Shown piece by piece: positions 5,334-16,743 of a stretch of DNA of 64,000 bases. Below the pieces are notes generated by a model. That model ran no database searches, was not told the DNA's origin, and saw only the letters and a list, made by a program, of their open reading frames with translations. Source of the DNA: a virus (lineage: Duplodnaviria; Caudoviricetes); the IMG/VR virus record IMGVR_UViG_3300029288_000060, positions 128,001-192,000 of that record. The stretch is one strand, 5' to 3'. The first letter of the stretch is position 1, and each line of letters begins with the position of its first letter. The translations under genes were made by a program, and so were the position numbers.

Positions 5334-8096
5334 TTATAAAGATTCTCCACAAATAATTTTATCAAAAATACCTTTATATTTTCCAGACTTTTGAATACCT
5401 TTAATGATTTGTCTTTTAGGGTTAGAAAATCCTAAACCTAAAATCCAGCTCGCTTTTTCAGGAACAGATTGAATGCTGTAATAAACAGGAACTATTTTAT
5501 TCCTATCTTTTACCAATCTCCATAAATTTTCTTGACCATTATCAATTGCCCACATCATCTGAGATACTATACATTCAAAATGAACATGATGTATATTTCT
5601 GCTCCTGTTATATATTTCATATGAATTATCAACTAAGTCTTTATAATTTTTATCTTTTGTTTGATGAAATAGTCTTGATGCTAAAGTTAAATCCCCAACA
5701 ATATCTTTTTGTTTAGATTCTTTATTTTCCTCTTCTTCATCTTTTCCTAATTTTGCAACCCCCGAGTTGTGGAACGTACGAAGTATAAGCTGAGTATTTG
5801 TTTCTCCCAATGACTGCGCCGCGATAATTCCAATAAAATTACTATGAATATTTTTCCATAAATCTCCGTAACATTTATGACATATTTCTTGACTATTGCA
5901 AAAAATTGGACTTCTTATTTTAATAGTTTTGTTTATTAACTCTATTCTGTTTTTTTCTGTAATTTTTTCAAGCTGGTTTTTTTCATTTAGAAAATATCTA
6001 TCTAATAACATTTTTGATTTTTTATCATCGTTTACATAAACATCAAGAAAATCTTGTGTACCACAATCATCAATATCTTTACTTAGTTCTAAATTTGAGC
6101 CTGTAAATAATAATTTTCTCGATAAGTACCCGGAAGTACCAGTATTTAAGGCAACATCTAAAAGACCTTTTCTACAACCATATGTTGAATTGAAAAATTC
6201 TTCTTGTGTTAATCCCTCCAATAAACTATGTTTAATTGGTTTTTCTTTAATCATTCCATTAAAATCTGAAACAAAACCTCTAGAAAATACAATCTGGGAT
6301 GCTTGTTCCCAACTTCCCCTAGCACCTGATTCGATTAAATAAGAATAATTAAAATTATCTTTTAGGAAATTTATTGTTTCTGGGGAAGTAAGTTTTCTAA
6401 TTTTTTCCAAAATTGTTCCGTTTTCTTCATATATTTTATCTCTTAGTTTACCCGAATTTTTTATTTCAAAAGCTTTTAGGGATAATGTAGGACCAAAAAT
6501 AGTTGAATATTTAAATCCAATTTCTTTAATCTTATCTAAAGTATTTGCAACAATATTTTCCGGGTATATTTCTTTAATATTATTCAATATTTTTAAAAGT
6601 TCTTTTTTTCCAACAGGATAATTTATTAACTCATAATCTTCAGGAAAACAATCATTTAAAATTTTAAGAGATTCAGGAACTTTTTTTCCTTTGTAGTCAA
6701 TTATATTTTGCAATTTTGGGAATTGATTCGTACTTAATGTATATATACCTAAAACTATATCCTGACTTGGTAGTGTTGATAATTCATTATTGGCAGCATT
6801 CGTAAAATTTTTTGTAATAATAACTTTTTCCAATAATTCATCTTTTGTTTTTTTAGAAATAGGTACATATACTGCCATTTGATCACCATCAAAATCCGCG
6901 TTAAATCCTGAACATACCAATGGATGTAGTTTAATTACATTATCTTTAGAAATTTTAATCTTAAATGCCACCATACTTAATCTATGTAATGTTGGTTGTC
7001 TATTTAAGATACATAATTCATTTTTAGATAATTCTTCACAAATATTGTATAATGAAAAGTTAGAAAACGTAACACATTGATCTATATAATCTATTGCTTG
7101 ATTTAATAATTTAAATTTACTAAGTTCTATTAATTTTTTAGCAACTGGTAATTTAAATAACTCTAAAAAACCAACATATGGTAAAGAACATTCATCAATA
7201 TTTAAAGCAGGATCTGGTATAATAACAGCTCTGCCAGAAAAATCAATTCTTTTTCCTAGTATATTACCTCTTATTAATCCTTCTTTTTTAGATAATTTTT
7301 CAATAATATGCTCATACAATTCAGTTGCGTCTTTTTGTAATTGTTTAAAATAAGAATAAAAGAGAGTTTTATCCCTAGTAATATCAATAATAGTATCTTT
7401 CATAGATTCTTTTTTGGTAAGGATTTGCATATAGAATCTATTTATTTTATCCACAATTTGATTATTTCTTTCAACTCCTTTTGCTGCAGGCCTTAAATCT
7501 GGTGGTAAAACTAAGATATTTTGAGTAAATAATTTATCAAGATTATCTAATATATTTTTCCATTTACTATTAGGATCATCCTCAACATACGCCATAGCCA
7601 TATTACTAATTAACTCATATATTGCATCCAATTTTTCCCATCTTAAAACACCTGGCGGAACTTTATCTTCTTCAGTTACAAAATAAAAGTCATCTTTTGT
7701 GTATAACACACTTTTTTCATTTTTCATTAACTTATTCAAATACGCTTTTAATTTATTTCCTGCTATATCAATAACTAAATCATACATAATTGGATTAACT
7801 ATTTGAACTGGTAATACTATTTTAGCAAATCTTTTTCTTCTTACATCGCTATTTACAATATCTACACCACAAATTTTACATGTACCACCTGACCTGGAAA
7901 CACCATGATATACATCACATTGACAAGTATAATTCTTTACAGGCCCAAAAATTTGCTCAGAAAATAACCCTTCTGAATGAAATTTTCTTTTGTCAATAAT
8001 CTTAGAAGATGTTATTTCTTTTAAATCTTCACAAAATGCTCCTAAATCAAGAAGTTTTGGCATCTTTTTTATCGACCTCGCTTTCACTTTTTTCAC
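5334..8096 (-). CDS. rpoC: Multisubunit RNA polymerase beta-prime-like subunit (set 1); true start may be MPKLL near 8063
   Basis: GLFSEQIFGP, CxC...CxxC zinc finger, VLPPDLRP, LGKRIDFSGRAVI, NRQPTLH, catalytic NADFDGDQ, TSGYLSRKL, TQLILRTFH. Confidence 0.95.
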   Translation of the reverse strand: MKKVKARSIKKMPKLLDLGAFCEDLKEITSSKIIDKRKFHSEGLFSEQIFGPVKNYTCQCDVYHGVSRSGGTCKICGVDIVNSDVRRKRFAKIVLPVQIVNPIMYDLVIDIAGNKLKAYLNKLMKNEKSVLYTKDDFYFVTEEDKVPPGVLRWEKLDAIYELISNMAMAYVEDDPNSKWKNILDNLDKLFTQNILVLPPDLRPAAKGVERNNQIVDKINRFYMQILTKKESMKDTIIDITRDKTLFYSYFKQLQKDATELYEHIIEKLSKKEGLIRGNILGKRIDFSGRAVIIPDPALNIDECSLPYVGFLELFKLPVAKKLIELSKFKLLNQAIDYIDQCVTFSNFSLYNICEELSKNELCILNRQPTLHRLSMVAFKIKISKDNVIKLHPLVCSGFNADFDGDQMAVYVPISKKTKDELLEKVIITKNFTNAANNELSTLPSQDIVLGIYTLSTNQFPKLQNIIDYKGKKVPESLKILNDCFPEDYELINYPVGKKELLKILNNIKEIYPENIVANTLDKIKEIGFKYSTIFGPTLSLKAFEIKNSGKLRDKIYEENGTILEKIRKLTSPETINFLKDNFNYSYLIESGARGSWEQASQIVFSRGFVSDFNGMIKEKPIKHSLLEGLTQEEFFNSTYGCRKGLLDVALNTGTSGYLSRKLLFTGSNLELSKDIDDCGTQDFLDVYVNDDKKSKMLLDRYFLNEKNQLEKITEKNRIELINKTIKIRSPIFCNSQEICHKCYGDLWKNIHSNFIGIIAAQSLGETNTQLILRTFHNSGVAKLGKDEEEENKESKQKDIVGDLTLASRLFHQTKDKNYKDLVDNSYEIYNRSRNIHHVHFECIVSQMMWAIDNGQENLWRLVKDRNKIVPVYYSIQSVPEKASWILGLGFSNPKRQIIKGIQKSGKYKGIFDKIICGESL

Positions 8097-8406
8097 TTAA
8101 ACAATCATCTGATTTTTTGTCGTCATCCCAAAAAATATCATTATTATTTTGTTTTTGAGTTATTAAAATAAAATGAGCTATTTCCATAAAATGTTTCTTA
8201 ACATAACTTGCTATTAAAGGATCTATTTCTTTCATTATATCTTTCATTAATATTTTAATATTTTTTTCTTTAAAATAATTTTCTTCATTAATAATACCTT
8301 TAATCATTTCTTTAAATTGTAAATTAACATTATTATTTTCACTTTGCTTTTTCATTTGTACCTCTTTTCTTTTTTCTAGATTCAAATAAACTGGTGATAA
8401 AATCAT
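8047..8406 (-). CDS. Hypothetical protein (probable start MKKQSE at 8355)
   Basis: ORF with GAGG RBS ahead of an internal ATG. Confidence 0.5.
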   Translation of the reverse strand: MILSPVYLNLEKRKEVQMKKQSENNNVNLQFKEMIKGIINEENYFKEKNIKILMKDIMKEIDPLIASYVKKHFMEIAHFILITQKQNNNDIFWDDDKKSDDCLSEKSESEVDKKDAKTS

Positions 8407-8536
8407 TGAATATTTCTTTTATGAATTCTAAAATACTATTACACCCTTTTTTAACTACTGGTTCTAAATCCTCTAAGGTTTCATTTCCTATTTTTTTTAA
8501 ATCTTCTTTATATTTTTGTTTTTTTGATTCATTCAT
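8339..8536 (-). CDS. Hypothetical protein
   Basis: 65-aa ORF with GGAGG RBS, overlapping its neighbours. Confidence 0.5.
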   Translation of the reverse strand: MNESKKQKYKEDLKKIGNETLEDLEPVVKKGCNSILEFIKEIFNDFITSLFESRKKKRGTNEKAK

Positions 8537-8879
8537 TTTTTCTATCCTCCACTATTTTAAAATCTTGCCAAGGTTGATAAAATGCACTATCAAAATTAAA
8601 AATCTTAAACATATTTTCGATAATTTGTATTGTTTCATCATTTACAACGTTATCTTTAATAAAATCTGGAAAACAAAATTCTTTTGTTTTTGGATCACAG
8701 TTTGGATGATTGCCTTTATTAATTATTATTTTTTCAATCTTTTTCATTTCATTCGTATATATAGTAAATTCATTTATAATATAATTAGAATTTAAAATGG
8801 TAATATTATAAAGAATTGAGTTACAAATTAACTTATTTGGAACTATTGTTTTTTCTATAACATTCTGTTCAATAATCAT
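8529..8879 (-). CDS. Small E2/UBC-like protein
   Basis: HPNCDPKTKEFCF resembles the UBC HPN-x7/8-C signature; ATGA overlap with the upstream ThiF gene. Confidence 0.55.
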   Translation of the reverse strand: MIIEQNVIEKTIVPNKLICNSILYNITILNSNYIINEFTIYTNEMKKIEKIIINKGNHPNCDPKTKEFCFPDFIKDNVVNDETIQIIENMFKIFNFDSAFYQPWQDFKIVEDRKNE

Positions 8880-9745
8880 GCAGAACCTGTTTCTGGTAAT
8901 AATTCAACGTAATATTTATTATTATGGATACCAACACTAATAATGTAATAATTGAATTGATACGGAAGGTTTTTGGTAAGGGAGGAAAAACTGAAGATAA
9001 TATCTTGAATTGTACTAAAGGTATTTTTTGGAACTATTTTTGTATTATAAGGTGAATGTTTGTCTCCTAAAGAAACTAATAATTCATTATCTTTATTTAT
9101 ATCAATAAGTGAAGAATAATTATTATTTAAATTAATTAATTTTCCATCAAAATCATTATTGTCATCATAAACTATATCCACATCATTTTTGTCAACTAAA
9201 GCTTTTATTCTTTCTGAAATACAATCAATTGGTATTTCAAAAACTTTACGCTTTTTTACCATTAAATTAATCAAACCTTTTTCAAATAATGTCGTAACAT
9301 TCAAAGCAGCATTTTTTAAGTCAATTCTTGTTAATCTTGATGCGTATTTTCCTTCATGTTGCTTTAAATAATTAACATTTTTTCTGCAATCCATAATAAG
9401 ATTTCTAAAAGATATATATAATCTCATATCTATTAAATCTTTTCTATTATAAGTAAAATCTCTACAATCAATAATTAAATCAAACTTTGGGATTTTTGTT
9501 TCGCCTTCTATAAATTTTTTATTTAAAATATTGACTCGACATTTATTATTTAACTTATCGCAAATAGCTTTTGTTTTTAACTTTCCAATATCTTTTTCAT
9601 CATAAATAGAATTCTTAGTATTTTCTAATTCTACAGTATCATAATCTATTAAAAGTAAATTTTTTGTTGAGTCTAATTCTGAAAGATTTTTAGCTAAAAA
9701 TCCTCCAATAGTACCTAAACCAATTATGCAAATATCACTATACAA
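8876..9745 (-). CDS. ThiF/E1-like adenylating enzyme (second copy) with C-terminal extension
   Basis: IIGLGTIGG nucleotide-binding loop, LIDYDTVE, KLKT, IIDCRD. Confidence 0.8.
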   Translation of the reverse strand: MYSDICIIGLGTIGGFLAKNLSELDSTKNLLLIDYDTVELENTKNSIYDEKDIGKLKTKAICDKLNNKCRVNILNKKFIEGETKIPKFDLIIDCRDFTYNRKDLIDMRLYISFRNLIMDCRKNVNYLKQHEGKYASRLTRIDLKNAALNVTTLFEKGLINLMVKKRKVFEIPIDCISERIKALVDKNDVDIVYDDNNDFDGKLINLNNNYSSLIDINKDNELLVSLGDKHSPYNTKIVPKNTFSTIQDIIFSFSSLTKNLPYQFNYYIISVGIHNNKYYVELLPETGSA

Positions 9746-9795
9746 ATATTGCCTCCTATTTATTTGTTCTATTAATTAAAGAAATTTTCTTAATT

Positions 9796-10038
9796 TTATT
9801 CATTTTCCTTCATAATTTTAATCATTTCGTCAATATTTTCTTTTAAAAAAATCATATCCTTAATTGATAATCTTCCACTAGCTGAATAACCAATAGTGCC
9901 GTCTTTTTTTTCATAACTTCTAGTAAATCCAATTTTCGATGGCCCACCATCATATGAAAAAATTGAACATAATAAACTAGATGAACCTTGTTTTAATTCA
10001 AATAGCTTTATCAATTTATCTTTACTCTCATCATACAT
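9796..10038 (-). CDS. PC4/YdbC-like ssDNA-binding protein
   Basis: 80 aa with SIFSYDGGPSKIGFTR...GRLS pattern typical of PC4-fold proteins. Confidence 0.5.
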   Translation of the reverse strand: MYDESKDKLIKLFELKQGSSSLLCSIFSYDGGPSKIGFTRSYEKKDGTIGYSASGRLSIKDMIFLKENIDEMIKIMKENE

Positions 10039-10066
10039 TGTTTGGCTCCTTTTTCTGTTAAAGAAA

Positions 10067-10114
10067 AAGGAGGATTAGAAAAGGTAAATAAAATATATTT
10101 TTCTAATCCTCCTT
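10067..10114 (-). terminator. Intrinsic terminator-like hairpin
   Basis: 16-bp perfect stem AAGGAGGATTAGAAAA/TTTTCTAATCCTCCTT, 16-nt loop, followed by TTTCTTT on the minus strand. Confidence 0.65.
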
Positions 10115-10122
10115 AATTGTTT

Positions 10123-10635
10123 TTATTTTAATTTAAAAATTTGTATTTCATCTCTTGTCGGTTCTGGTTTAAATTCTGATTTATACTTAAAATATTCTCT
10201 TGTTTTTTCTACTGGATAAATGTAAGGTATCGTGACGAATATTCTTTCATATTTTTCAAACTGTCTTGTAATATGAGTAAAACCTAACTTATTGATTTTT
10301 TGTAAAAGTTCACCTTTTAATTCTTCTGATTTTATTTTGAAACATTTTTGTATATTATACAAATCTCTTGAATCATGTAAATTTGGATAAATTTCATGAG
10401 AATCACTTCCTTTGAATATTGCTTCAGCTGCCCTACTCTTTGAAACCTTTCTAGCAATTTTTTTATTATGAAAGTCAATAATAGAACAAATAGCTACACC
10501 TCTTGCTAAAATCTTTTTATCTTCTGAAAACATAACACAAGCAGTAAAGATATTACCTACAAGAGGACAATTATTATAATAAAATCTGATATCATCAACG
10601 CCGCATTCTTTTAGTTTTTGAGCTAAAGTGTCCAT
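10123..10635 (-). CDS. Phage hypothetical protein
   Basis: 170-aa ORF with GGAG RBS; GVAIC..D.....IARKVS..RA pattern common in small phage proteins. Confidence 0.6.
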   Translation of the reverse strand: MDTLAQKLKECGVDDIRFYYNNCPLVGNIFTACVMFSEDKKILARGVAICSIIDFHNKKIARKVSKSRAAEAIFKGSDSHEIYPNLHDSRDLYNIQKCFKIKSEELKGELLQKINKLGFTHITRQFEKYERIFVTIPYIYPVEKTREYFKYKSEFKPEPTRDEIQIFKLK

Positions 10636-10661
10636 AATATAATCTCCATTAAATAAAAATT

Positions 10662-10695
10662 AGGAAGATGAAAATAATATTATTTTCATCTTCCT
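10662..10695 (-). terminator. Perfect 34-bp palindrome, probable terminator closing the Ubl operon
   Basis: AGGAAGATGAAAATAAT-ATTATTTTCATCTTCCT, 8 nt after the Ubl stop, followed by a T-rich tract on the minus strand. Confidence 0.7.
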
Positions 10696-10703
10696 TTCTT
10701 AAA

Positions 10704-11177
10704 TTAACCCTTTGTACCGGCTTGTCTTACAAATTCTAGTACATCGTTACTCTTTAAAATATATGAATCTTGAACTTCAACGCCATTAACAACTCCAACG
10801 CCATCAGTTTCGATATTCAAAATTTCCCGATATGTAGCTTTTATAAATCCAACAGATCTTCCAACTACAGGATAATTCGATGACGCTGCGCCACATGATA
10901 CAGAAATAAGACTTTTATAAGAATCATCCTTTTCAATAAAACTATGAAGATTGGCAGTAATATAAGGAATTTTGCTATTATCAACAGGCTTTTTTGATAC
11001 GGTTTCCTTTGAATTTGCATTTTTCAAACTTTTATAAAAAGCTCCAATAGCTTCAATAATTACATCTTTCCTTGCTTTTGCCATCTTAGGAATATCATAC
11101 ATTTTACAAATTTCGCGTAATTCAGCAACCGTTTTTTCCAAAAGCTCATCATTGTTAAATATACGGATGTTTGACAT
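10704..11177 (-). CDS. Ubiquitin-like (beta-grasp) protein with N-terminal Rho-N/SAP-like helical domain
   Basis: Start MSNIRIF at 11177 with AGGAG RBS; KTVAELREICKMYDI...RKDVIIEAI helix-extension-helix pattern; C-terminal VVNG...YILKSNDVLEFVRQAGTKG ending in Gly. Confidence 0.8.
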   Translation of the reverse strand: MSNIRIFNNDELLEKTVAELREICKMYDIPKMAKARKDVIIEAIGAFYKSLKNANSKETVSKKPVDNSKIPYITANLHSFIEKDDSYKSLISVSCGAASSNYPVVGRSVGFIKATYREILNIETDGVGVVNGVEVQDSYILKSNDVLEFVRQAGTKG

Positions 11178-11178
11178 A

Positions 11179-11880
11179 TTAAAATCTCCTTGTATTGTTT
11201 TTTGTTTTTGGTACTCTTTTTTTACAATTCGCATTCATAGTTAACAAATCAAAATAAATTTCTGAAAAATTATAATTGTTATTTTCAATTATATTGTAAA
11301 ACGCAGCACACATATAAGAAGCTACCATAAAATTGGTAAAATATAATTGAGGTTTTGAATTAGATAACTCTTCGCAAGACATTTCATTTGGTAATTTATC
11401 TGTAGCGTTTTCAATTTCTGGATGATAATCAGTTAAGCTTGGAGTTATATTTACTCCATCCTTTTTAATAAAAACTTGAACATTACCATCTGTTAATTCA
11501 TTTCCGCCAGAAATGATAACAATATCTTTCAAATTTTCAGCGTACTCTGAAATTATCAGTCTTGTTCTATGGTTATCAACCCCTACAAATACTATTGTAT
11601 TTTCATTTATAATACTAGAAATTGTATTTTCATCAACAAATACTGAATGATCTACAAAATTAATTGATGTAAATTTATCTTTTAATTCAGCACATTTTAT
11701 TTCAGCTTTATTACCAAACCCATTAAATTCTTGTCTTTTGGTATTTTTAAATTCATATTTATCTCCATCAACTAAATTGATAATGGGTTGAGTTATATTG
11801 TCTCTTGTATTAATATATCTTGAAATTGTGTTTGATAATATTGAACCAATACCGCCTAACCCTATGATTGTAATTTCCAT
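11179..11880 (-). CDS. ThiF/E1 ubiquitin-like activating enzyme
   Basis: IIGLGGIGS, LVDGD, NTKRQ, NKAE, GVDNHRTR; candidate catalytic Cys in MSCEE. Confidence 0.88.
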   Translation of the reverse strand: MEITIIGLGGIGSILSNTISRYINTRDNITQPIINLVDGDKYEFKNTKRQEFNGFGNKAEIKCAELKDKFTSINFVDHSVFVDENTISSIINENTIVFVGVDNHRTRLIISEYAENLKDIVIISGGNELTDGNVQVFIKKDGVNITPSLTDYHPEIENATDKLPNEMSCEELSNSKPQLYFTNFMVASYMCAAFYNIIENNNYNFSEIYFDLLTMNANCKKRVPKTKNNTRRF

Positions 11881-11883
11881 TTT

Positions 11884-12873
11884 TCACCATGTCCATAATT
11901 TTTCACTGTCAAAAATGCTGTAATCAAGATTAAAATTATTTTTACAATCTTCCTCTTTTACTTTTTTTACCTCTTCTAAGTTTATTTTTGTAGTTCTATG
12001 GATACAATTGTTACAAACATCATATTTTTTACACTCGGACACCTCCATTTCTTTTGATTCTGTTTTTATTAACTTTGATCCATCGAACATATAAGTTGGA
12101 TATGAATTAAAATCAAATTGAGTGGTTTTATATTCTTTCTTCTTTACTTTTCTTAACCATTCTTTTTTAAAAGTTATTTGATTTGAATAATTAGTTAAAG
12201 CAAAACTAAACGTTGTTTTTACACTTTTATTATAAACTTTCTCTCCATTTATAACTTGAAAACTAGGTTTAAACATATTTGTTGAGTAATTACAATATTC
12301 TACAAATTTTAAGCCTTCAATATAGTCTTCTGAAATAACTGGAACTCTCATTCCATTAACGGCTACAGTTGCAGTTATATCAAAAAACTCTTTATCATTT
12401 AATTTCCCTACAGTAATATGAATTCCATCAAACTTATCTTCATCACTAACATCAGTAGCGGAATGAAATGCCGCCATACTTCCATGACTATGAATTGTAC
12501 CAATCAAGTTATAATTTTTTATAACTATGTTAGCTTTGTAGGATAAAGACGCGGAACTTACCTCTTGCTCTGGAACATAAATTTTGTAATTTTTATTTTT
12601 TTTATTATAGTATAAAAGAACAATTGCTTCACTGGAATATAAATTATACACTTCTCTAAAAAAAGCTAAAATATTTGCAAATACTTTTTCAGGAATTTTT
12701 GGAATATTAATTTTAGCAAAAGTTTGAATATTATCCAGAAATGATATTTTGTCAACGGGTGTGATACTTTCAATTAGATCTAATTTCTTTTTTAAAAAAA
12801 TTCCATCTTTTGCAATTATGTAGCATGTTTCATCCTGTGGTATACTTTTCCCATCATTTATATATACATTCAT
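11884..12873 (-). CDS. JAB/MPN+ metallo-isopeptidase
   Basis: Upstream Glu (SEAIV) and IHSHGSMAAFHSATDVSDE, the HxH-x7-S-x2-D JAMM motif. Confidence 0.9.
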   Translation of the reverse strand: MNVYINDGKSIPQDETCYIIAKDGIFLKKKLDLIESITPVDKISFLDNIQTFAKINIPKIPEKVFANILAFFREVYNLYSSEAIVLLYYNKKNKNYKIYVPEQEVSSASLSYKANIVIKNYNLIGTIHSHGSMAAFHSATDVSDEDKFDGIHITVGKLNDKEFFDITATVAVNGMRVPVISEDYIEGLKFVEYCNYSTNMFKPSFQVINGEKVYNKSVKTTFSFALTNYSNQITFKKEWLRKVKKKEYKTTQFDFNSYPTYMFDGSKLIKTESKEMEVSECKKYDVCNNCIHRTTKINLEEVKKVKEEDCKNNFNLDYSIFDSEKLWTW

Positions 12874-15364
12874 TCAAGCTCCAAGTTGTTCTTGCAAATG
12901 TATGATTCCGCGAATTATTATCTACCAAAATATTTCCAAATATATTCATTTTTCCACGTACGACTGGTATCGATAATAATTCTTTTACAGCATATCTAGG
13001 CAGTAACAAACCATATCTTATTAAATGATTAGTATTTGTTATTGGATGTCCATTTTCAAACTGATAATCATCCGGTGATAAATGTTGATAAAAAGAACAA
13101 TAAGTACTATGGTAAGTTTTGACTAATAATTTATCACTAAGTTTAAATTTAAAAATATCCCCATCCTGAATTTTATTTATTGGTGCAGGCTCGTTTATTT
13201 TAAGTTTATGGAACATTAATTCGTTTGAGTTATAAATATTAAAGTCAGCCTCAATTTGCTCAAATAACAATGTTCTATAATTAGAAAACAATACTAAGGG
13301 TTTTAGATCATCAATAATAAAAGCTTTAATTTCATTGCAGTCTTTCATTGGAAAATCAGCAATACTTTTTTTATTTGCTTTTACCTTCATACCGATTTCA
13401 AGGTTATTTATTTTTTTGCAAACCTGTCTTACAGTGGGAAAATAATTTTTTACTCTAGATTTTTCTTTGTCAAATTTTATAATTGGGTGTTTTAAAGTAT
13501 TATTCTCGTCATCCACTAAAATTAAATAAAAATAATTGTCATCTATTTCAAAACTAGAAATTTTTCTTATGACAAACATTTCTTCTGGTTGTTCCCAATT
13601 TATAACAATTACTTCATCCCCTATATGATAAGATATATCCTTATCATAAGACATAATTGTAAAAAATTCTTTTTTATCTATGCAAATATTTTGAAAATAA
13701 TTTATACATTTATCGATATTACATTCTAAAGATTTGACCGAGTAATCAAAATCATCACTATCAATAAGAAATCCTGAAGTTTTCAAGATATTTACATTAT
13801 GTTCTTTTGATGTATTAGTGAAAAGTTGATCATTGAATCTATATACTTCCTCACTAAAAATATTTTTTTCATCAACAATACTGTAATTTGATTTGTCATT
13901 AAAGTCGATCATAAGTTTAGGGCGGTCTTGATTTTCATGGTCAAATACTAAATAAGCTTTATTATCTAATATTTCTACACAATCATATTTTGTAATATAT
14001 AATTTCACAAAAGTTGAACTAAATCTATTATGATGTTGTATATAATATTTATTATTTTTAATTAAACTAATATTTTGAAATTTAATATCAGTATTATCAA
14101 CTTTTTCAATAAATTTATTTAAAAAAGAAGATAAAAGGTAAAAGTTTGCGCCAATTTTAACCTGAATTGTGTTATCTCTTAATTTTAAAATTTTTTCAAC
14201 TGGTTGAACTGATTCTGAAGCTTTAAAATATATAATATCTCCAATATGTAGTTCTGTTTCTTCATTAATTTTTATAGATTCCATAGTATTTATTTTTTCG
14301 ATAGATTTAAGAATTTCTTCACGGTTTTCACCGTTTAAATCTATTTTTATTATATTATTTTCATTATCTTCTAATCTAACTGTGGTTATATAATTTTCAT
14401 TATCATTATAATGTTTAAAGAAATCACAAACATAGTAATTTACATCTTTGTATTTTATTTCATCTCCGCATGATAAAAATGTAGTTCCCAATGGGATAGA
14501 TTCCATCCGATATTTTCTAATTTTGTTTTTATATTTATTTTTAATTGAATTTTGTAAATTGCTAAATGAGTATTGTCTTGATTGATAAGCTTCATTAATT
14601 AAATTATTTATAGTAAGACCAGAATTTAACCATCTTGTTGAAAATATAAATAATGGATCAATTTTTGTATTGTATGCCCAGGTAAACCAATCACATAGAT
14701 GGGGATTAATTTCATATTTTTTAATAAACATTTCATAATCAGTATTAAATTCATTGAACCAAAATCTATTAGTTAATTCTTCAACTTTTTTAACAATAGA
14801 TGTAGATGACTCTTCATCCACAACTATTTCATCACCCAAACAAGCTTGATAATTACTATCAATATTTGGTAAACATGGAATTAATAAATAGTCTTCTAAA
14901 CTTGATATGGGATGTATTCTAAAAAATATTTTAAAACTTTTATATTGGTTATATCTATCCAATATAATAGCATAAACTATATGTGGAAAAGATAATGAAA
15001 ATCTATAAGGTTTTGTATGAAGAGGAAACTTGTCTAACTGGTACTCCTCATATTTTCCATTTATTTTATGAGCTTCAATTTGATAAGTTAAATCTTTATT
15101 AAGAAGTATAGTTCTTATTTTTGGAGTTTCTTCAATGATAATAATATTATTTTGATTTGGTAATGTTCTTATATATTTACAATTATTTGGCAGAATCTCA
15201 TGTTGCGGAGGAAGAGAGTTGTTATATAATCCATCAAGAAAATCTGTTGTATTCATAGAACTTTGAATAGAATAAGGTTCTGCTTTAACATAGTCTTCAC
15301 TATATAATGACGTTACATTTTTGACAATTGAATCATTAATTACTATTTCATCTATTGTATTCAT
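12854..15364 (-). CDS. Large protein with N-terminal prokaryotic E2-like domain and long C-terminal region
   Basis: LSFPHIVY...LPNIDSNYQACLG...FWFNEFNTD resembles prokaryotic E2 family D; overlaps the JAB gene. Confidence 0.7.
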   Translation of the reverse strand: MNTIDEIVINDSIVKNVTSLYSEDYVKAEPYSIQSSMNTTDFLDGLYNNSLPPQHEILPNNCKYIRTLPNQNNIIIIEETPKIRTILLNKDLTYQIEAHKINGKYEEYQLDKFPLHTKPYRFSLSFPHIVYAIILDRYNQYKSFKIFFRIHPISSLEDYLLIPCLPNIDSNYQACLGDEIVVDEESSTSIVKKVEELTNRFWFNEFNTDYEMFIKKYEINPHLCDWFTWAYNTKIDPLFIFSTRWLNSGLTINNLINEAYQSRQYSFSNLQNSIKNKYKNKIRKYRMESIPLGTTFLSCGDEIKYKDVNYYVCDFFKHYNDNENYITTVRLEDNENNIIKIDLNGENREEILKSIEKINTMESIKINEETELHIGDIIYFKASESVQPVEKILKLRDNTIQVKIGANFYLLSSFLNKFIEKVDNTDIKFQNISLIKNNKYYIQHHNRFSSTFVKLYITKYDCVEILDNKAYLVFDHENQDRPKLMIDFNDKSNYSIVDEKNIFSEEVYRFNDQLFTNTSKEHNVNILKTSGFLIDSDDFDYSVKSLECNIDKCINYFQNICIDKKEFFTIMSYDKDISYHIGDEVIVINWEQPEEMFVIRKISSFEIDDNYFYLILVDDENNTLKHPIIKFDKEKSRVKNYFPTVRQVCKKINNLEIGMKVKANKKSIADFPMKDCNEIKAFIIDDLKPLVLFSNYRTLLFEQIEADFNIYNSNELMFHKLKINEPAPINKIQDGDIFKFKLSDKLLVKTYHSTYCSFYQHLSPDDYQFENGHPITNTNHLIRYGLLLPRYAVKELLSIPVVRGKMNIFGNILVDNNSRNHTFARTTWSLNECIYK

Positions 15365-15367
15365 TTA

Positions 15368-15718
15368 TTACTCACCTCTAACATATTTTAACGTTTCCGC
15401 ATAAAATTTAAGTATCTTTTCTGCTTTGTTTTCTGTAACTTCCCATACTTTTTTTCTTTTTATTTGTTCATTTGTTTTTTTCTTAGACCATAAAGAAATA
15501 ATATAAGTTTCTTTTGATTCTCTTTCTAAACAAAGGAAATTGATTCCGATTTCTTCATTAAATTGAATTGCTAAAAATATATTAGGCCCTACAGGTTGAT
15601 CATTAGGAACTGTAAATTTTGGAGTTTCTTCTATCATAATTTGGTCACAAATTCTTTTTACTTGTTCATCCAATTCAGATTTTGATAATTGTTGAAGTAA
15701 CTCATTTAATATCGGCAT
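15368..15718 (-). CDS. Hypothetical protein
   Basis: 116-aa ORF coupled to neighbours. Confidence 0.6.
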   Translation of the reverse strand: MPILNELLQQLSKSELDEQVKRICDQIMIEETPKFTVPNDQPVGPNIFLAIQFNEEIGINFLCLERESKETYIISLWSKKKTNEQIKRKKVWEVTENKAEKILKFYAETLKYVRGE

Positions 15719-16034
15719 TATTTACTCCATCTTTAATTTTTAATATTATATCATCAAGAAAACTTTTTTGTTTTTCATTATCCATTTCTGTAATTTTTGG
15801 TATTATTAATGATATTATTGTCTCTAAAAAATTACATAATTCTTTATTTTCTAATTCCCCAGCTTGCATATATACATCATTTCCATTAATGTCAATCATT
15901 AAAAACTTCTCTTCTATGTTTTTAAAATTAATGTTTTGAATTCTCATTAAGTAAGATGGACAATTTAACCATATTCGTTTATTTATTGTGTCAATATCTA
16001 ACGTGCCATAAGGAATATTTTTTGATATTATCAA
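15702..16034 (-). CDS. Hypothetical protein
   Basis: 110-aa ORF with GGAGG RBS. Confidence 0.6.
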   Translation of the reverse strand: MIISKNIPYGTLDIDTINKRIWLNCPSYLMRIQNINFKNIEEKFLMIDINGNDVYMQAGELENKELCNFLETIISLIIPKITEMDNEKQKSFLDDIILKIKDGVNNADIK

Positions 16035-16050
16035 CTGTAGCCTCCAAAAC

Positions 16051-16365
16051 TTATTTTAACCTTTCGATCTTATACATTTTTTTTGATGAAGTAACAACAT
16101 ATTCCAATCGATCAAATGGTACAGATCGCCAATCTTGTTTTTCTATATCAAAAACACTTAAAATTTTACTTTTTTGTATTTTTGATAAAATTTTAGTTAA
16201 ATCTATTCCTTTAGGTTTTTTCTCCTTTGGAATTCTATTAAAATCTAAAGTACATTTCATCATTCGAGTTGAACCATCTTTTTTTTCAAATTGTACTGAA
16301 ACTTCTTTTTCATTTTTTATTATTTTTAAGAATTCAATTGCTGATGTGATTGTTTCTTTCTCCAT
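16051..16365 (-). CDS. WYL_2/Sm-like SH3 beta-barrel protein
   Basis: VQFEKKDGSTRMMKCTL and VFDIEKQDWRS motifs. Confidence 0.75.
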   Translation of the reverse strand: MEKETITSAIEFLKIIKNEKEVSVQFEKKDGSTRMMKCTLDFNRIPKEKKPKGIDLTKILSKIQKSKILSVFDIEKQDWRSVPFDRLEYVVTSSKKMYKIERLK

Positions 16366-16386
16366 TTTATCTCCATCTTTTATCTT

Positions 16387-16743
16387 TTACCAACTTTTAT
16401 ATTTATAAACTCTTTGAGGATAAATTTTATTTTTATAATTTCCTTTATCCAATACATCTTCAATCCATCTTATTCCATATTGTAATCTTGGAATAGCAAA
16501 TTTACCTACGTCTAAATCATGAACAGCAAAGAAAACATCATTTCTGTCCCCAGTATTTGGATCATCTTTATCTGGAAAAGTTTTAATTTCTTCAAGGTAT
16601 TGAATTCTTGCACCAAAAGTATCTAACATAAAACTTTCAAATTCTATAATCTTATCATCACCAACTATCGTGGCAGGCCAAACGCATACTTGGGTATAAT
16701 GTTCTTTTAATTTAACATTCTTTGAGCTAGTATTACTCTTCAT
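16387..16743 (-). CDS. Hypothetical protein
   Basis: 118-aa ORF abutting the radical SAM stop codon. Confidence 0.65.
   Translation of the reverse strand: MKSNTSSKNVKLKEHYTQVCVWPATIVGDDKIIEFESFMLDTFGARIQYLEEIKTFPDKDDPNTGDRNDVFFAVHDLDVGKFAIPRLQYGIRWIEDVLDKGNYKNKIYPQRVYKYKSW

Follow-up and report, generated by a model that had tools for sequence, protein, structure and literature searches.

The question raised by this locus is whether a phage can encode a complete pathway for conjugating a ubiquitin-like protein (Ubl). The locus lies within the 64,000-nucleotide stretch that we analysed, referred to here as the window, which comprises bases 128001–192000 of a 268,812-bp IMG/VR virus record (IMGVR_UViG_3300029288_000060; CheckV completeness 74%). 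An earlier note, made from the sequence of the window alone, had read four adjacent genes as encoding an E2-like conjugating protein, a JAB-type protease, an E1-like activating enzyme and a Ubl. Our analysis supports this reading, in that three of the parts were identified with search and modelling tools and the fourth is likely to be a Ubl. Judged from sequence comparisons and structural models, the four genes probably constitute a self-contained Ubl-conjugation cascade, and one that works.

Organization of the four-gene operon

The window has a G+C content of about 26% and carries nearly all of its genes on the minus strand. The coordinates of the four genes, of the domains that they encode and of the hairpin that follows them are given below, with positions numbered from the first base of the window.

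12854–15364, minus strand: giant E2-like protein P0001, 836 amino acids (aa); an open reading frame (ORF) with its translation, belonging to a family of 1634 clusters.
15203–15364, minus strand: N-terminal beta-rich module of the E2-like protein, ~54 residues; a weak PC4/Sub1-like resemblance, a lead only.
14615–15202, minus strand: putative UBC/E2-like catalytic domain, residues ~55–250; LPN-x7-C at 14840–14872 (N167, C175).
12857–14590, minus strand: C-terminal extension of the E2-like protein, ~578 residues; repeated small 'GD' modules, no recognised fold.
11884–12873, minus strand: JAMM/JAB metalloprotease P0002, 329 aa, with a PRTRC_A-type N-terminal domain; JAMM core at 12451–12492, E82 at 12628–12630.
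11179–11880, minus strand: minimal E1-like ThiF adenylyltransferase P0003, 233 aa; GLGGIG at 11845–11862, Cys169 at 11374–11376.
10704–11177, minus strand: candidate ubiquitin-like modifier, 157 aa; Rho-N/SAP-like head at 11016–11159, a linker, and a ThiS-like domain at 10707–10961 with the end AGTKG.
10662–10695, minus strand: intrinsic-terminator-like hairpin; 15-bp stem, 4-nt loop, T-rich tail.

The four minus-strand genes are as tightly coupled as the earlier note had described, with one correction to a start site. The E2-like and JAB genes overlap by 20 nt and a spacer of 3 nt separates the JAB and ThiF genes. The small gene had been listed as a 176-aa ORF that starts at 11234 and overlaps the ThiF gene, but its homologues all start at an internal ATG, at 11177, just 1 nt past the ThiF stop and with AAGGAG as a ribosome-binding site 7 nt ahead of it; we therefore take the modifier to be the 157-aa product of 10704–11177. 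The palindrome that the earlier note placed at the close of the operon is also there: reading from 10695 to 10662 it forms a perfect stem, which begins 8 nt past the Ubl stop codon and has a T-rich run behind it. There are three terminator-like sites, this hairpin among them, in 8.5 kb of sequence where 1.6 would be expected. The four-gene unit is not isolated at its 5' end, where a 116-aa gene (15368–15718) stops 3 nt before the start of the E2-like gene, and the operon as a whole is set between a DNA-metabolism block (SbcC-like ATPase, radical SAM and WYL_2 genes) and the genes for the beta' and beta subunits of a phage RNA polymerase.

The giant E2-like protein

P0001 belongs to a large family of similarly long proteins. 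When 1.84 billion cluster representatives were searched with its profile, 1634 clusters (at 50% identity) matched with an E-value of 0.001 or less, 277 of them with one of 1e-30 or less; the members are almost all full length, at 800–950 aa. The only residues that are invariant in 138 aligned relatives are P59, E78, P127, N167, C175, W202, Y217, F671 and R790. Two of these, N167 and C175, provide the Asn and Cys of the LPN-x7-C motif (residues 165–175) that had drawn attention to this 836-aa protein in the first place, and they have the same spacing as in the HPN...Cys signature of E2 enzymes. The N-terminal domains of 66 of the 138 relatives match Pfam Prok-E2_D (PF14460; best 5.8e-9), and 24 match PRTRC_B (best 1.3e-4).

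We examined the large protein for a UBC fold by AlphaFold2 modelling and structural alignment, and an E2/UBC fold was returned. The model of residues 1–258 is of high quality (predicted local distance difference test score, pLDDT, 94.1; predicted template modelling score 0.79), and when it was compared with 48,161 chains using VIA-align, the top 24 rows were nearly all E2, UBC or ubiquitin E2 variant (UEV) structures (Z 4.0–5.0; 105–131 aa aligned; root-mean-square deviation, rmsd, 3.4–5.6; model residues 55–231). The best match is 1zdn_A (Z 5.0, rmsd 4.9, 115 aa), and others include bacterial BubB (9eav), CdnG-E2 and Cap2 (7to3), together with inactive E2 folds of the UEV/FANCL type. Four uncharacterised phage proteins of 241–621 aa in BFVD share the fold of this domain (E 2e-7 to 1e-6). 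Taken with the Prok-E2_D matches in relatives and the invariant Asn and Cys, the near-uniform E2 content of the structural matches gives a clear reading of residues ~55–250 as a predicted, catalytically competent E2 domain, for which the Z-scores are modest.

The remainder of P0001 is less readily placed. Residues 1–55 weakly resemble single-stranded-DNA-binding domains of the PC4 family (VIA-align Z 3.6–3.9). Residues 259–836 have no match in Pfam, NCBIfam or PDB sequences, and a Pfam scan of the C-terminal extensions of 75 relatives revealed no family in common, although the extension is conserved over its whole length within the family. Comparison of the extension with itself using hhalign shows internal repeats, with residues 283–350 aligning to 562–640 (probability 83%) and to 352–425 (probability 62%). 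It thus appears to hold small 'GD' modules of about 60 residues, at least two and perhaps four of them.

Other searches with P0001 were unproductive. We saw no match to it in PHROGs or PADLOC (nor to the JAB protein in PHROGs), no match by tblastn of the 836-aa protein among 50,697 phage records, and no confirmed case in a pattern scan of IMG/VR. Sequence-profile searches of the PDB were empty for the full-length family, for the E2 domain and for the C-terminal 578 residues, and an index of 5.8 billion proteins gave, at the sensitivity of that tool, no shorter proteins with the E2 domain by itself.

The JAB protease and the E1-like enzyme

P0002 matches Pfam Prok-JAB (PF14464) at 3.4e-5 and 24.1 bits, just below the 25-bit cut-off, and it matches PRTRC_A at 7.7e-13 over residues 16–178, which is also under the cut-off for that model. 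The JAMM motif, E82...H128-x-H130-x7-S138-xx-D141, does not vary among nine sequences with identities down to 35%, and neither does a C-terminal C-x2-C (C287, C290). A profile of the family finds the proteasomal deubiquitinase RPN11/PSMD14 in the PDB at 4e-4. The JAMM-motif protease recognised in the earlier note thus retains its full metal site and shows kinship to both PRTRC_A and RPN11.

P0003 is a ThiF-family enzyme, as had been claimed for it, matching Pfam ThiF (PF00899) at 8.7e-15 and 54.9 bits, well over the cut-off of 28.1. The residues that are invariant in the family (GLGGIGS, R21, D38/D40, R49, Q50, K58, D102, N103, R107, C169 and C191) include the nucleotide-binding ones and those expected of a Rossmann adenylation domain, with its GxGxxG loop, Arg finger and Mg-binding Asp, and C169 and C191 are candidates for the thioester-forming Cys of the crossover loop. 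Profile searches of the PDB retrieve the ThiF-type protein 9egc (3.3e-10), Uba4, UBA5, MoeB and ThiF. The closest solved relative by profile is the protein in entries 9egb, 9egc and 9egd, named a 'THIF-type NAD/FAD binding fold domain-containing protein' and present in 7- and 14-chain assemblies; we found no paper for these entries, and the protein may come from a related system.

The candidate modifier and its predicted docking to the E1-like enzyme

The small protein has 39 relatives, all of them metagenomic, and in these a terminal AG-x-K-G is invariant. Most (35/39) stop at the Gly and the other four have one or two residues more, giving ends such as ...KGNS or ...KGC, much as in Ubl precursors whose maturation depends on a protease. 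The N-terminal 50 residues form a Rho-N/SAP-type helix-extension-helix head, matched by Pfam Rho_N in all 39 relatives (8.6e-6) and by the structure of Rho (1a62; VIA Z 8.2, rmsd 2.1, 48 aa, 27% identity). This head alone gives a match in a PDB sequence-profile search. It is followed by a variable linker and a C-terminal domain of about 85 residues with the predicted order beta-beta-alpha-beta-beta-beta (residues 76–152), modelled with pLDDT ~70–84 and ending in a flexible tail of low pLDDT. Weak matches to beta-grasp families are seen among the members (TGS in 21/39, ThiS in 14/39, Ub-Mut7C in 5/39), and TrkA_C is matched by only 2/39. The C-terminal domain is likely to be a beta-grasp. The invariant terminal Gly of the 'beta-grasp-like protein ending GTKG' in the earlier note is thus secure, and a search by fold did not confirm the beta-grasp itself.

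To explore the interaction of the modifier with the E1-like enzyme, we predicted the structure of a three-chain complex containing an E1 dimer and Ubl residues 66–157, using our own alignments and three controls. The complex scored 0.84, against 0.00 for the best control, with at least 97% of contacts shared between the runs and a partner pLDDT of at least 79; 58 of 80 solved complexes and 2 of 110 mismatched pairs attain the score mark, which is a rough guide for a three-chain job with its own alignments. Ubl residues 150–157 are predicted to lie against E1 residues 9–12 (the GxGxxG loop), 100–104 (including D102–H104), 107 (R107) and 125–133, such that the tail sits in the adenylation pocket. 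The pair resembles an E1 holding the tail of its own partner, and because the ThiF–ThiS and MoeB–MoaD complexes are already solved, the score is a measure of this likeness and not of binding. A further feature of the modifier is an invariant S-C-G-A-x-S loop (residues 94–99; 10882–10899), whose invariant Cys95 is unusual for a Ubl; it contacts E1 residues 209–218 in the predicted complex.

The same likeness raises the main alternative, which is that the modifier is a sulfur carrier, serving as a thiocarboxylate donor of the ThiS/MoaD/TtuB type for tRNA or DNA bases or for a cofactor, with the JAB protein maturing the carrier and the E2-like protein having some other role. ThiF–ThiS, MoeB–MoaD and TtuC–TtuB each pair a minimal E1 with a small ThiS-like partner that has a terminal Gly, the E1 here resembles ThiF, MoeB and Uba4, ThiS matches occur in the 14 relatives already mentioned, and the tail-in-pocket docking that we predict is the same as in ThiF–ThiS and MoeB–MoaD. 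The record also contains a borderline PP-loop ATPase (ATP_bind_3, 26.1 bits, 9.6e-7) at G000:C1:258714-259214, but this gene is unlinked, being some 115 kb away. Unlike the sulfur-carrier pairs, the set in the window is strictly linked to JAB and to E2, the latter with its invariant Asn and Cys in every contig examined, and the invariant Cys of a linked E2 points to transfer onto an acceptor. Moreover, no ThiG, MoaE or rhodanese was found in the 268,812-bp record (~74% complete), using searches that were all positive in control genomes, so that the absence of biosynthetic sulfur genes asserted in the earlier note holds, with the PP-loop ATPase as a single unlinked candidate. We therefore consider a sulfur-carrier system unlikely, and note that TtuB-type carriers do both sulfur transfer and conjugation.

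Conservation of the operon and neighbouring genes

We compared contigs encoding nine members of the E2 family with 47% to ~24% E2 identity. The order E2-JAB-ThiF-Ubl is identical in all eight of the contigs L002–L009 and in one more for which we used the gene list, and another contig ends after the third gene; the set is adjacent in every contig examined, down to the lowest identity. This shows that the operon is a stable core feature of a huge-phage clade. WYL_2 and a ~116-aa gene before the operon and genes for ~170-aa and ~80-aa proteins after it always accompany the four genes, and their positions in the window are as follows.

16051–16365: WYL_2 gene (Pfam 1.6e-11).
15368–15718: ~116-aa protein ending ...KYVRGE, no family match.
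10123–10635: ~170-aa protein, no family match.
9796–10038: ~80-aa protein, no family match.

We considered whether the 80-aa downstream protein is a single-stranded-DNA binder of the PC4/YdbC type, and rejected this for want of support in a PDB profile search. The RNA polymerase beta' protein of the related contig L005 (14139–17450) has 1341 aa and an intein (PF14890), and that of the window has 920 aa and is intein-free.

A second pair of E1-like and E2-like genes is located just downstream, at 8529–9745 on the minus strand of the window, and it is kept in L005, L006 and L007 and in one gene list. Its ThiF protein has 289 aa, with a Pfam match (1.2e-13) confined to the N-terminal Rossmann half, and its best matches in a defence library are to the E1 domains of Cap2 (3e-12), from the cyclic-oligonucleotide-based antiphage signalling system (CBASS), and of BilD (4.8e-5). 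The gene overlaps that of another 116-aa protein, with an invariant H58-P59-N60-x8-C69. The C-terminus of this second ThiF protein (8879–8905), ...YVELLPETGSA, is invariant in the four sequences compared and, by analogy with the tails of CBASS CD-NTases, could be a processed or conjugated end.

Relatives in cultured phages

Simpler cassettes are present in two cultured phages. In the Bacillus jumbo phage vB_BauM_KLEB27-3 (OM634661), on which we found no paper, genes gp194–gp199 form a poly-Ubl/E2/JAB/E1 cassette (L010, 160827–175354). Its 255-aa E2 matches Prok-E2_D and aligns with the profile of the window E2 by hhalign (probability 76%), such that its Asn and Cys coincide with N167 and C175, and the phage also encodes a PRTRC_A-type JAB and a ThiF. 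Three genes upstream of this E2_D/JAB/ThiF trio, the gp199 protein has Prok_Ub repeated four times in tandem (5e-27), in place of the Rho-N–ThiS-like modifier of the window. There is also an unrelated 559-aa neighbour, and the idea that it is a split-off form of the E2 extension was rejected at an hhalign probability of 0.1%.

Salmonella phage Arash (OQ632216) has the same order of genes in gp246c–gp248c, which match the E2-like (probability 46%), JAB (98.9%) and ThiF (98.2%) proteins. We did not recognise a Ubl beside these genes, and two small ORFs that were checked there lack a terminal Gly. In both phages the E2s are stand-alone proteins of about 250 aa, in contrast to the 836 aa of P0001. 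The phage records label the genes as hypothetical, 'structural', 'PRTRC_A domain' or ThiF, and no annotation assigns any of them to a Ubl system. Mass spectrometry of particle preparations of Arash detected proteins numbered Gp246–248 (PMC10585845), a numbering whose match to the locus tags is unconfirmed; since the same preparation held many enzymes, the term 'structural' should not be taken literally for these proteins.

Relation to known systems

The closest likeness is to the PRTRC cassettes (TIGR03734–03742) and to the type 6d systems predicted by Iyer, Burroughs and Aravind in 2006 (PMC1779556), which from the matches to PRTRC_A, PRTRC_B and PRTRC_ThiF we equate provisionally with one another. 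The features in common are a small Ubl with a C-terminal Gly, a JAB that has an additional domain at its N-terminus, a ThiF E1 without a rhodanese domain, an E2 of the Prok-E2_D/PRTRC_B type that lacks the HPN His, and location on a mobile genome. There are also clear differences. The scores are far under the curated cut-offs (PRTRC_A 48.4 against 101.8 bits, PRTRC_ThiF 32 against 144.75), neither the Ubl nor the neighbouring genes match components C, D, E or F, and Pfam and NCBIfam reveal no ParB-type gene among the ORFs at 8047–16743. The E2 is fused to an extension of ~580 residues, the Ubl has a Rho-N/SAP head and resembles ThiS/TGS and not Prok_Ub, and whereas the PRTRC cassette belongs to plasmids and integrative and conjugative elements, the genes in the window are core genes of a lytic-type huge-phage clade. 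On sequence criteria the operon is best classed as a remote, remodelled phage relative of the PRTRC/type 6d class and not as a PRTRC member.

The low scores might also be taken to indicate a degenerate relic, descended from a PRTRC-like cassette and left without a working cascade. This is very improbable because the catalytic residues of the E1, E2 and JAB proteins and the terminal Gly of the modifier are invariant across deep divergence, which is not the outcome of decay, and the ORFs are intact at every locus.

The description of this operon as an undescribed system in the earlier note is therefore correct in part, since the operon is a remote relative of a predicted class, and simpler cassettes, unannotated as Ubl systems, exist in cultured phages. 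A 2026 paper describes a canonical PRTRC cassette in a Burkholderia prophage and states that such cassettes were otherwise unrecorded in phages and of unstudied function (PMC13366799). Neither a 2021 review that compared 224 jumbo phages nor a 2026 paper on Jug phages mentions E1, E2, JAB or Ubl proteins. Another phage precedent is the pair TAPI (a Ubl) and TAPK (JAB plus NlpC/P60) of lambda and T1 (PMC1779556), which similarly combine a Ubl that has a conserved Gly with a JAB peptidase; unlike the window operon, which has genes for RNA polymerase and DNA metabolism around it, these have no E1 or E2 and are in a tail module.

Among the bacterial defence systems, Bil has the same four-part logic in separate genes (BilA Ubl, BilB E2, BilC JAB, BilD E1), and conjugation through the terminal Gly has been demonstrated experimentally, but it is a host-encoded antiphage defence with neither a giant E2 extension nor a Rho-N head. 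Type II CBASS Cap2/Cap3 and Bub share E1, E2 and protease chemistry acting on a C-terminal tail. Cap2 is an E2–E1 fusion that acts on a CD-NTase and not on a Ubl, whereas the E1 and E2 of the window are separate, with the JAB gene between them; Bub has a serine E2 and a different protease, whereas the window E2 keeps its invariant Cys. The PADLOC models for Bil and Cap do not match the E2, JAB or Ubl proteins, and the E1 gives weak Cap2-type matches (7.9e-5). By PADLOC and by architecture, the window operon is not Bil, CBASS or Bub.

These systems nonetheless suggest a role in counter-defence, in which the phage operon would undo or pre-empt host Bil or type II CBASS, with the JAB protein stripping modifiers and the Ubl, E1 and E2 serving as decoys or lysine caps. 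Bil is reported to tag phage tail proteins with a Ubl, and Cap2/Cap3 to use E1–E2/JAB chemistry (bioRxiv 10.1101/2023.09.04.556158; PMC10097602), and the phage JAB is by its motif predicted to be a bona fide JAMM enzyme. Stripping would need only the JAB protein, the PADLOC results give no link to Bil or Cap for three of the four parts, and the fixed position of the operon in a family that has diverged deeply (1634 clusters, with 24% identity among the compared loci) argues for a core function and not a patchy accessory one. We consider counter-defence improbable.

A proposed conjugation cascade

A pathway in four steps can be proposed for the operon. The JAMM protease would trim any residues past the terminal Gly of the modifier, and would later strip the modifier from its targets. 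The ThiF E1 would bind the AGTKG tail, adenylate Gly157 and probably load the modifier on Cys169, and the modifier would then move to Cys175 of the UBC-like domain. Lastly, the ~580-residue extension would act as a built-in E3-like substrate selector, directing the modifier to lysines on proteins of the phage or of its host. Since a Rho-N/SAP-type head forms part of the modifier, tagging would add a docking handle for nucleic acid or protein and not a bare Ubl.

Neither an E3 nor a target is evident, which would also accord with transfer to a non-canonical acceptor, such as a nucleic acid end, a lipid or a small molecule, or with self-modification of the giant E2 as an assembly or regulatory switch. 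The head of the modifier, the weak PC4-like N-terminal module of the E2-like protein and the nucleic-acid enzymes encoded nearby (RNA polymerase, SbcCD, WYL_2) would suit such a role. There is no precedent in E2_D/PRTRC-type sets, though, and apart from the Rho-N head the hints of nucleic-acid binding are weak, with the Z-scores of 3.6–3.9 noted above; we give this explanation little credence.

Several observations weigh against a working cascade that conjugates the modifier to proteins. P0001 itself has no E2 match in direct Pfam and NCBIfam scans, its E2 domain gives nothing at E ≤ 0.001 in a Foldseek search of the PDB, and its VIA-align Z-scores do not exceed a modest 5.0. It has Leu165 in the position of the His of HPN, and among the 138 relatives no His after C175 is invariant, the conserved residues there being W202 and Y217; type 6d E2s likewise have no HPN His but do have an absolutely conserved His after the Cys (PMC1779556). 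The E1 is minimal at 233 aa, with no rhodanese domain, no CxxC zinc motifs and no recognisable ubiquitin-fold domain for recruiting an E2. For the modifier, Foldseek finds nothing in the PDB at E ≤ 0.001 (SUMO1 is at E 0.047), and by VIA its C-terminal domain is closer to RCK_C/TrkA_C (Z 5.0–5.8) than to ubiquitin (Z 4.1–4.2). The compared genomes are collinear over more than 15 kb, so that linkage of the four genes cannot count as separate evidence that they function together. A thioester, a conjugate and a target would be expected for this operon from homology, and the literature that we found reports none of these for PRTRC-type cassettes; the substrate-selector role of the extension is one that we purely infer.

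A conjugation cascade remains the reading that we favour, and a wider proposal may be built upon it. The RNA polymerase genes of the phage lie immediately downstream of the operon, and the second pair of E1-like and mini-E2-like genes also comes after it. It is conceivable, if doubtful, that this huge-phage clade runs its own ubiquitination-like core pathway, in which a giant E2–E3 fusion tags transcription or nucleoid proteins of the host or the phage with a modifier whose Rho-N/SAP head docks to nucleic acid, and that this is the first complete phage cascade of E1, E2, deubiquitinase and Ubl to be described.

Significance

To our knowledge, prokaryotic Ubl conjugation has so far been shown experimentally only in host defence, by Bil, CBASS Cap2/3 and Bub. 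Here the same chemistry appears to be on the side of the virus, in an operon conserved among the core genes of huge phages that form a very large, uncultured group. What is new is this core-operon status, together with a giant E2 that has a 580-residue body and a modifier that has a Rho-N head. The PRTRC-type class was predicted in 2006, and the cascade, if it conjugates, would give PRTRC-type cassettes their first function. The simpler cassettes of the cultured Bacillus and Salmonella phages provide relatives that are accessible at the bench. Detection of conjugates would call for some care, since the terminal Gly directly follows an invariant Lys, so that trypsin would leave only a mono-Gly remnant of +57 Da, which would be missed by proteomics aimed at diglycine remnants and is readily confused with an iodoacetamide artefact. 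If the proposed pathway is correct, phages would, like eukaryotic viruses, take over the cell with ubiquitin-like tagging of their own.

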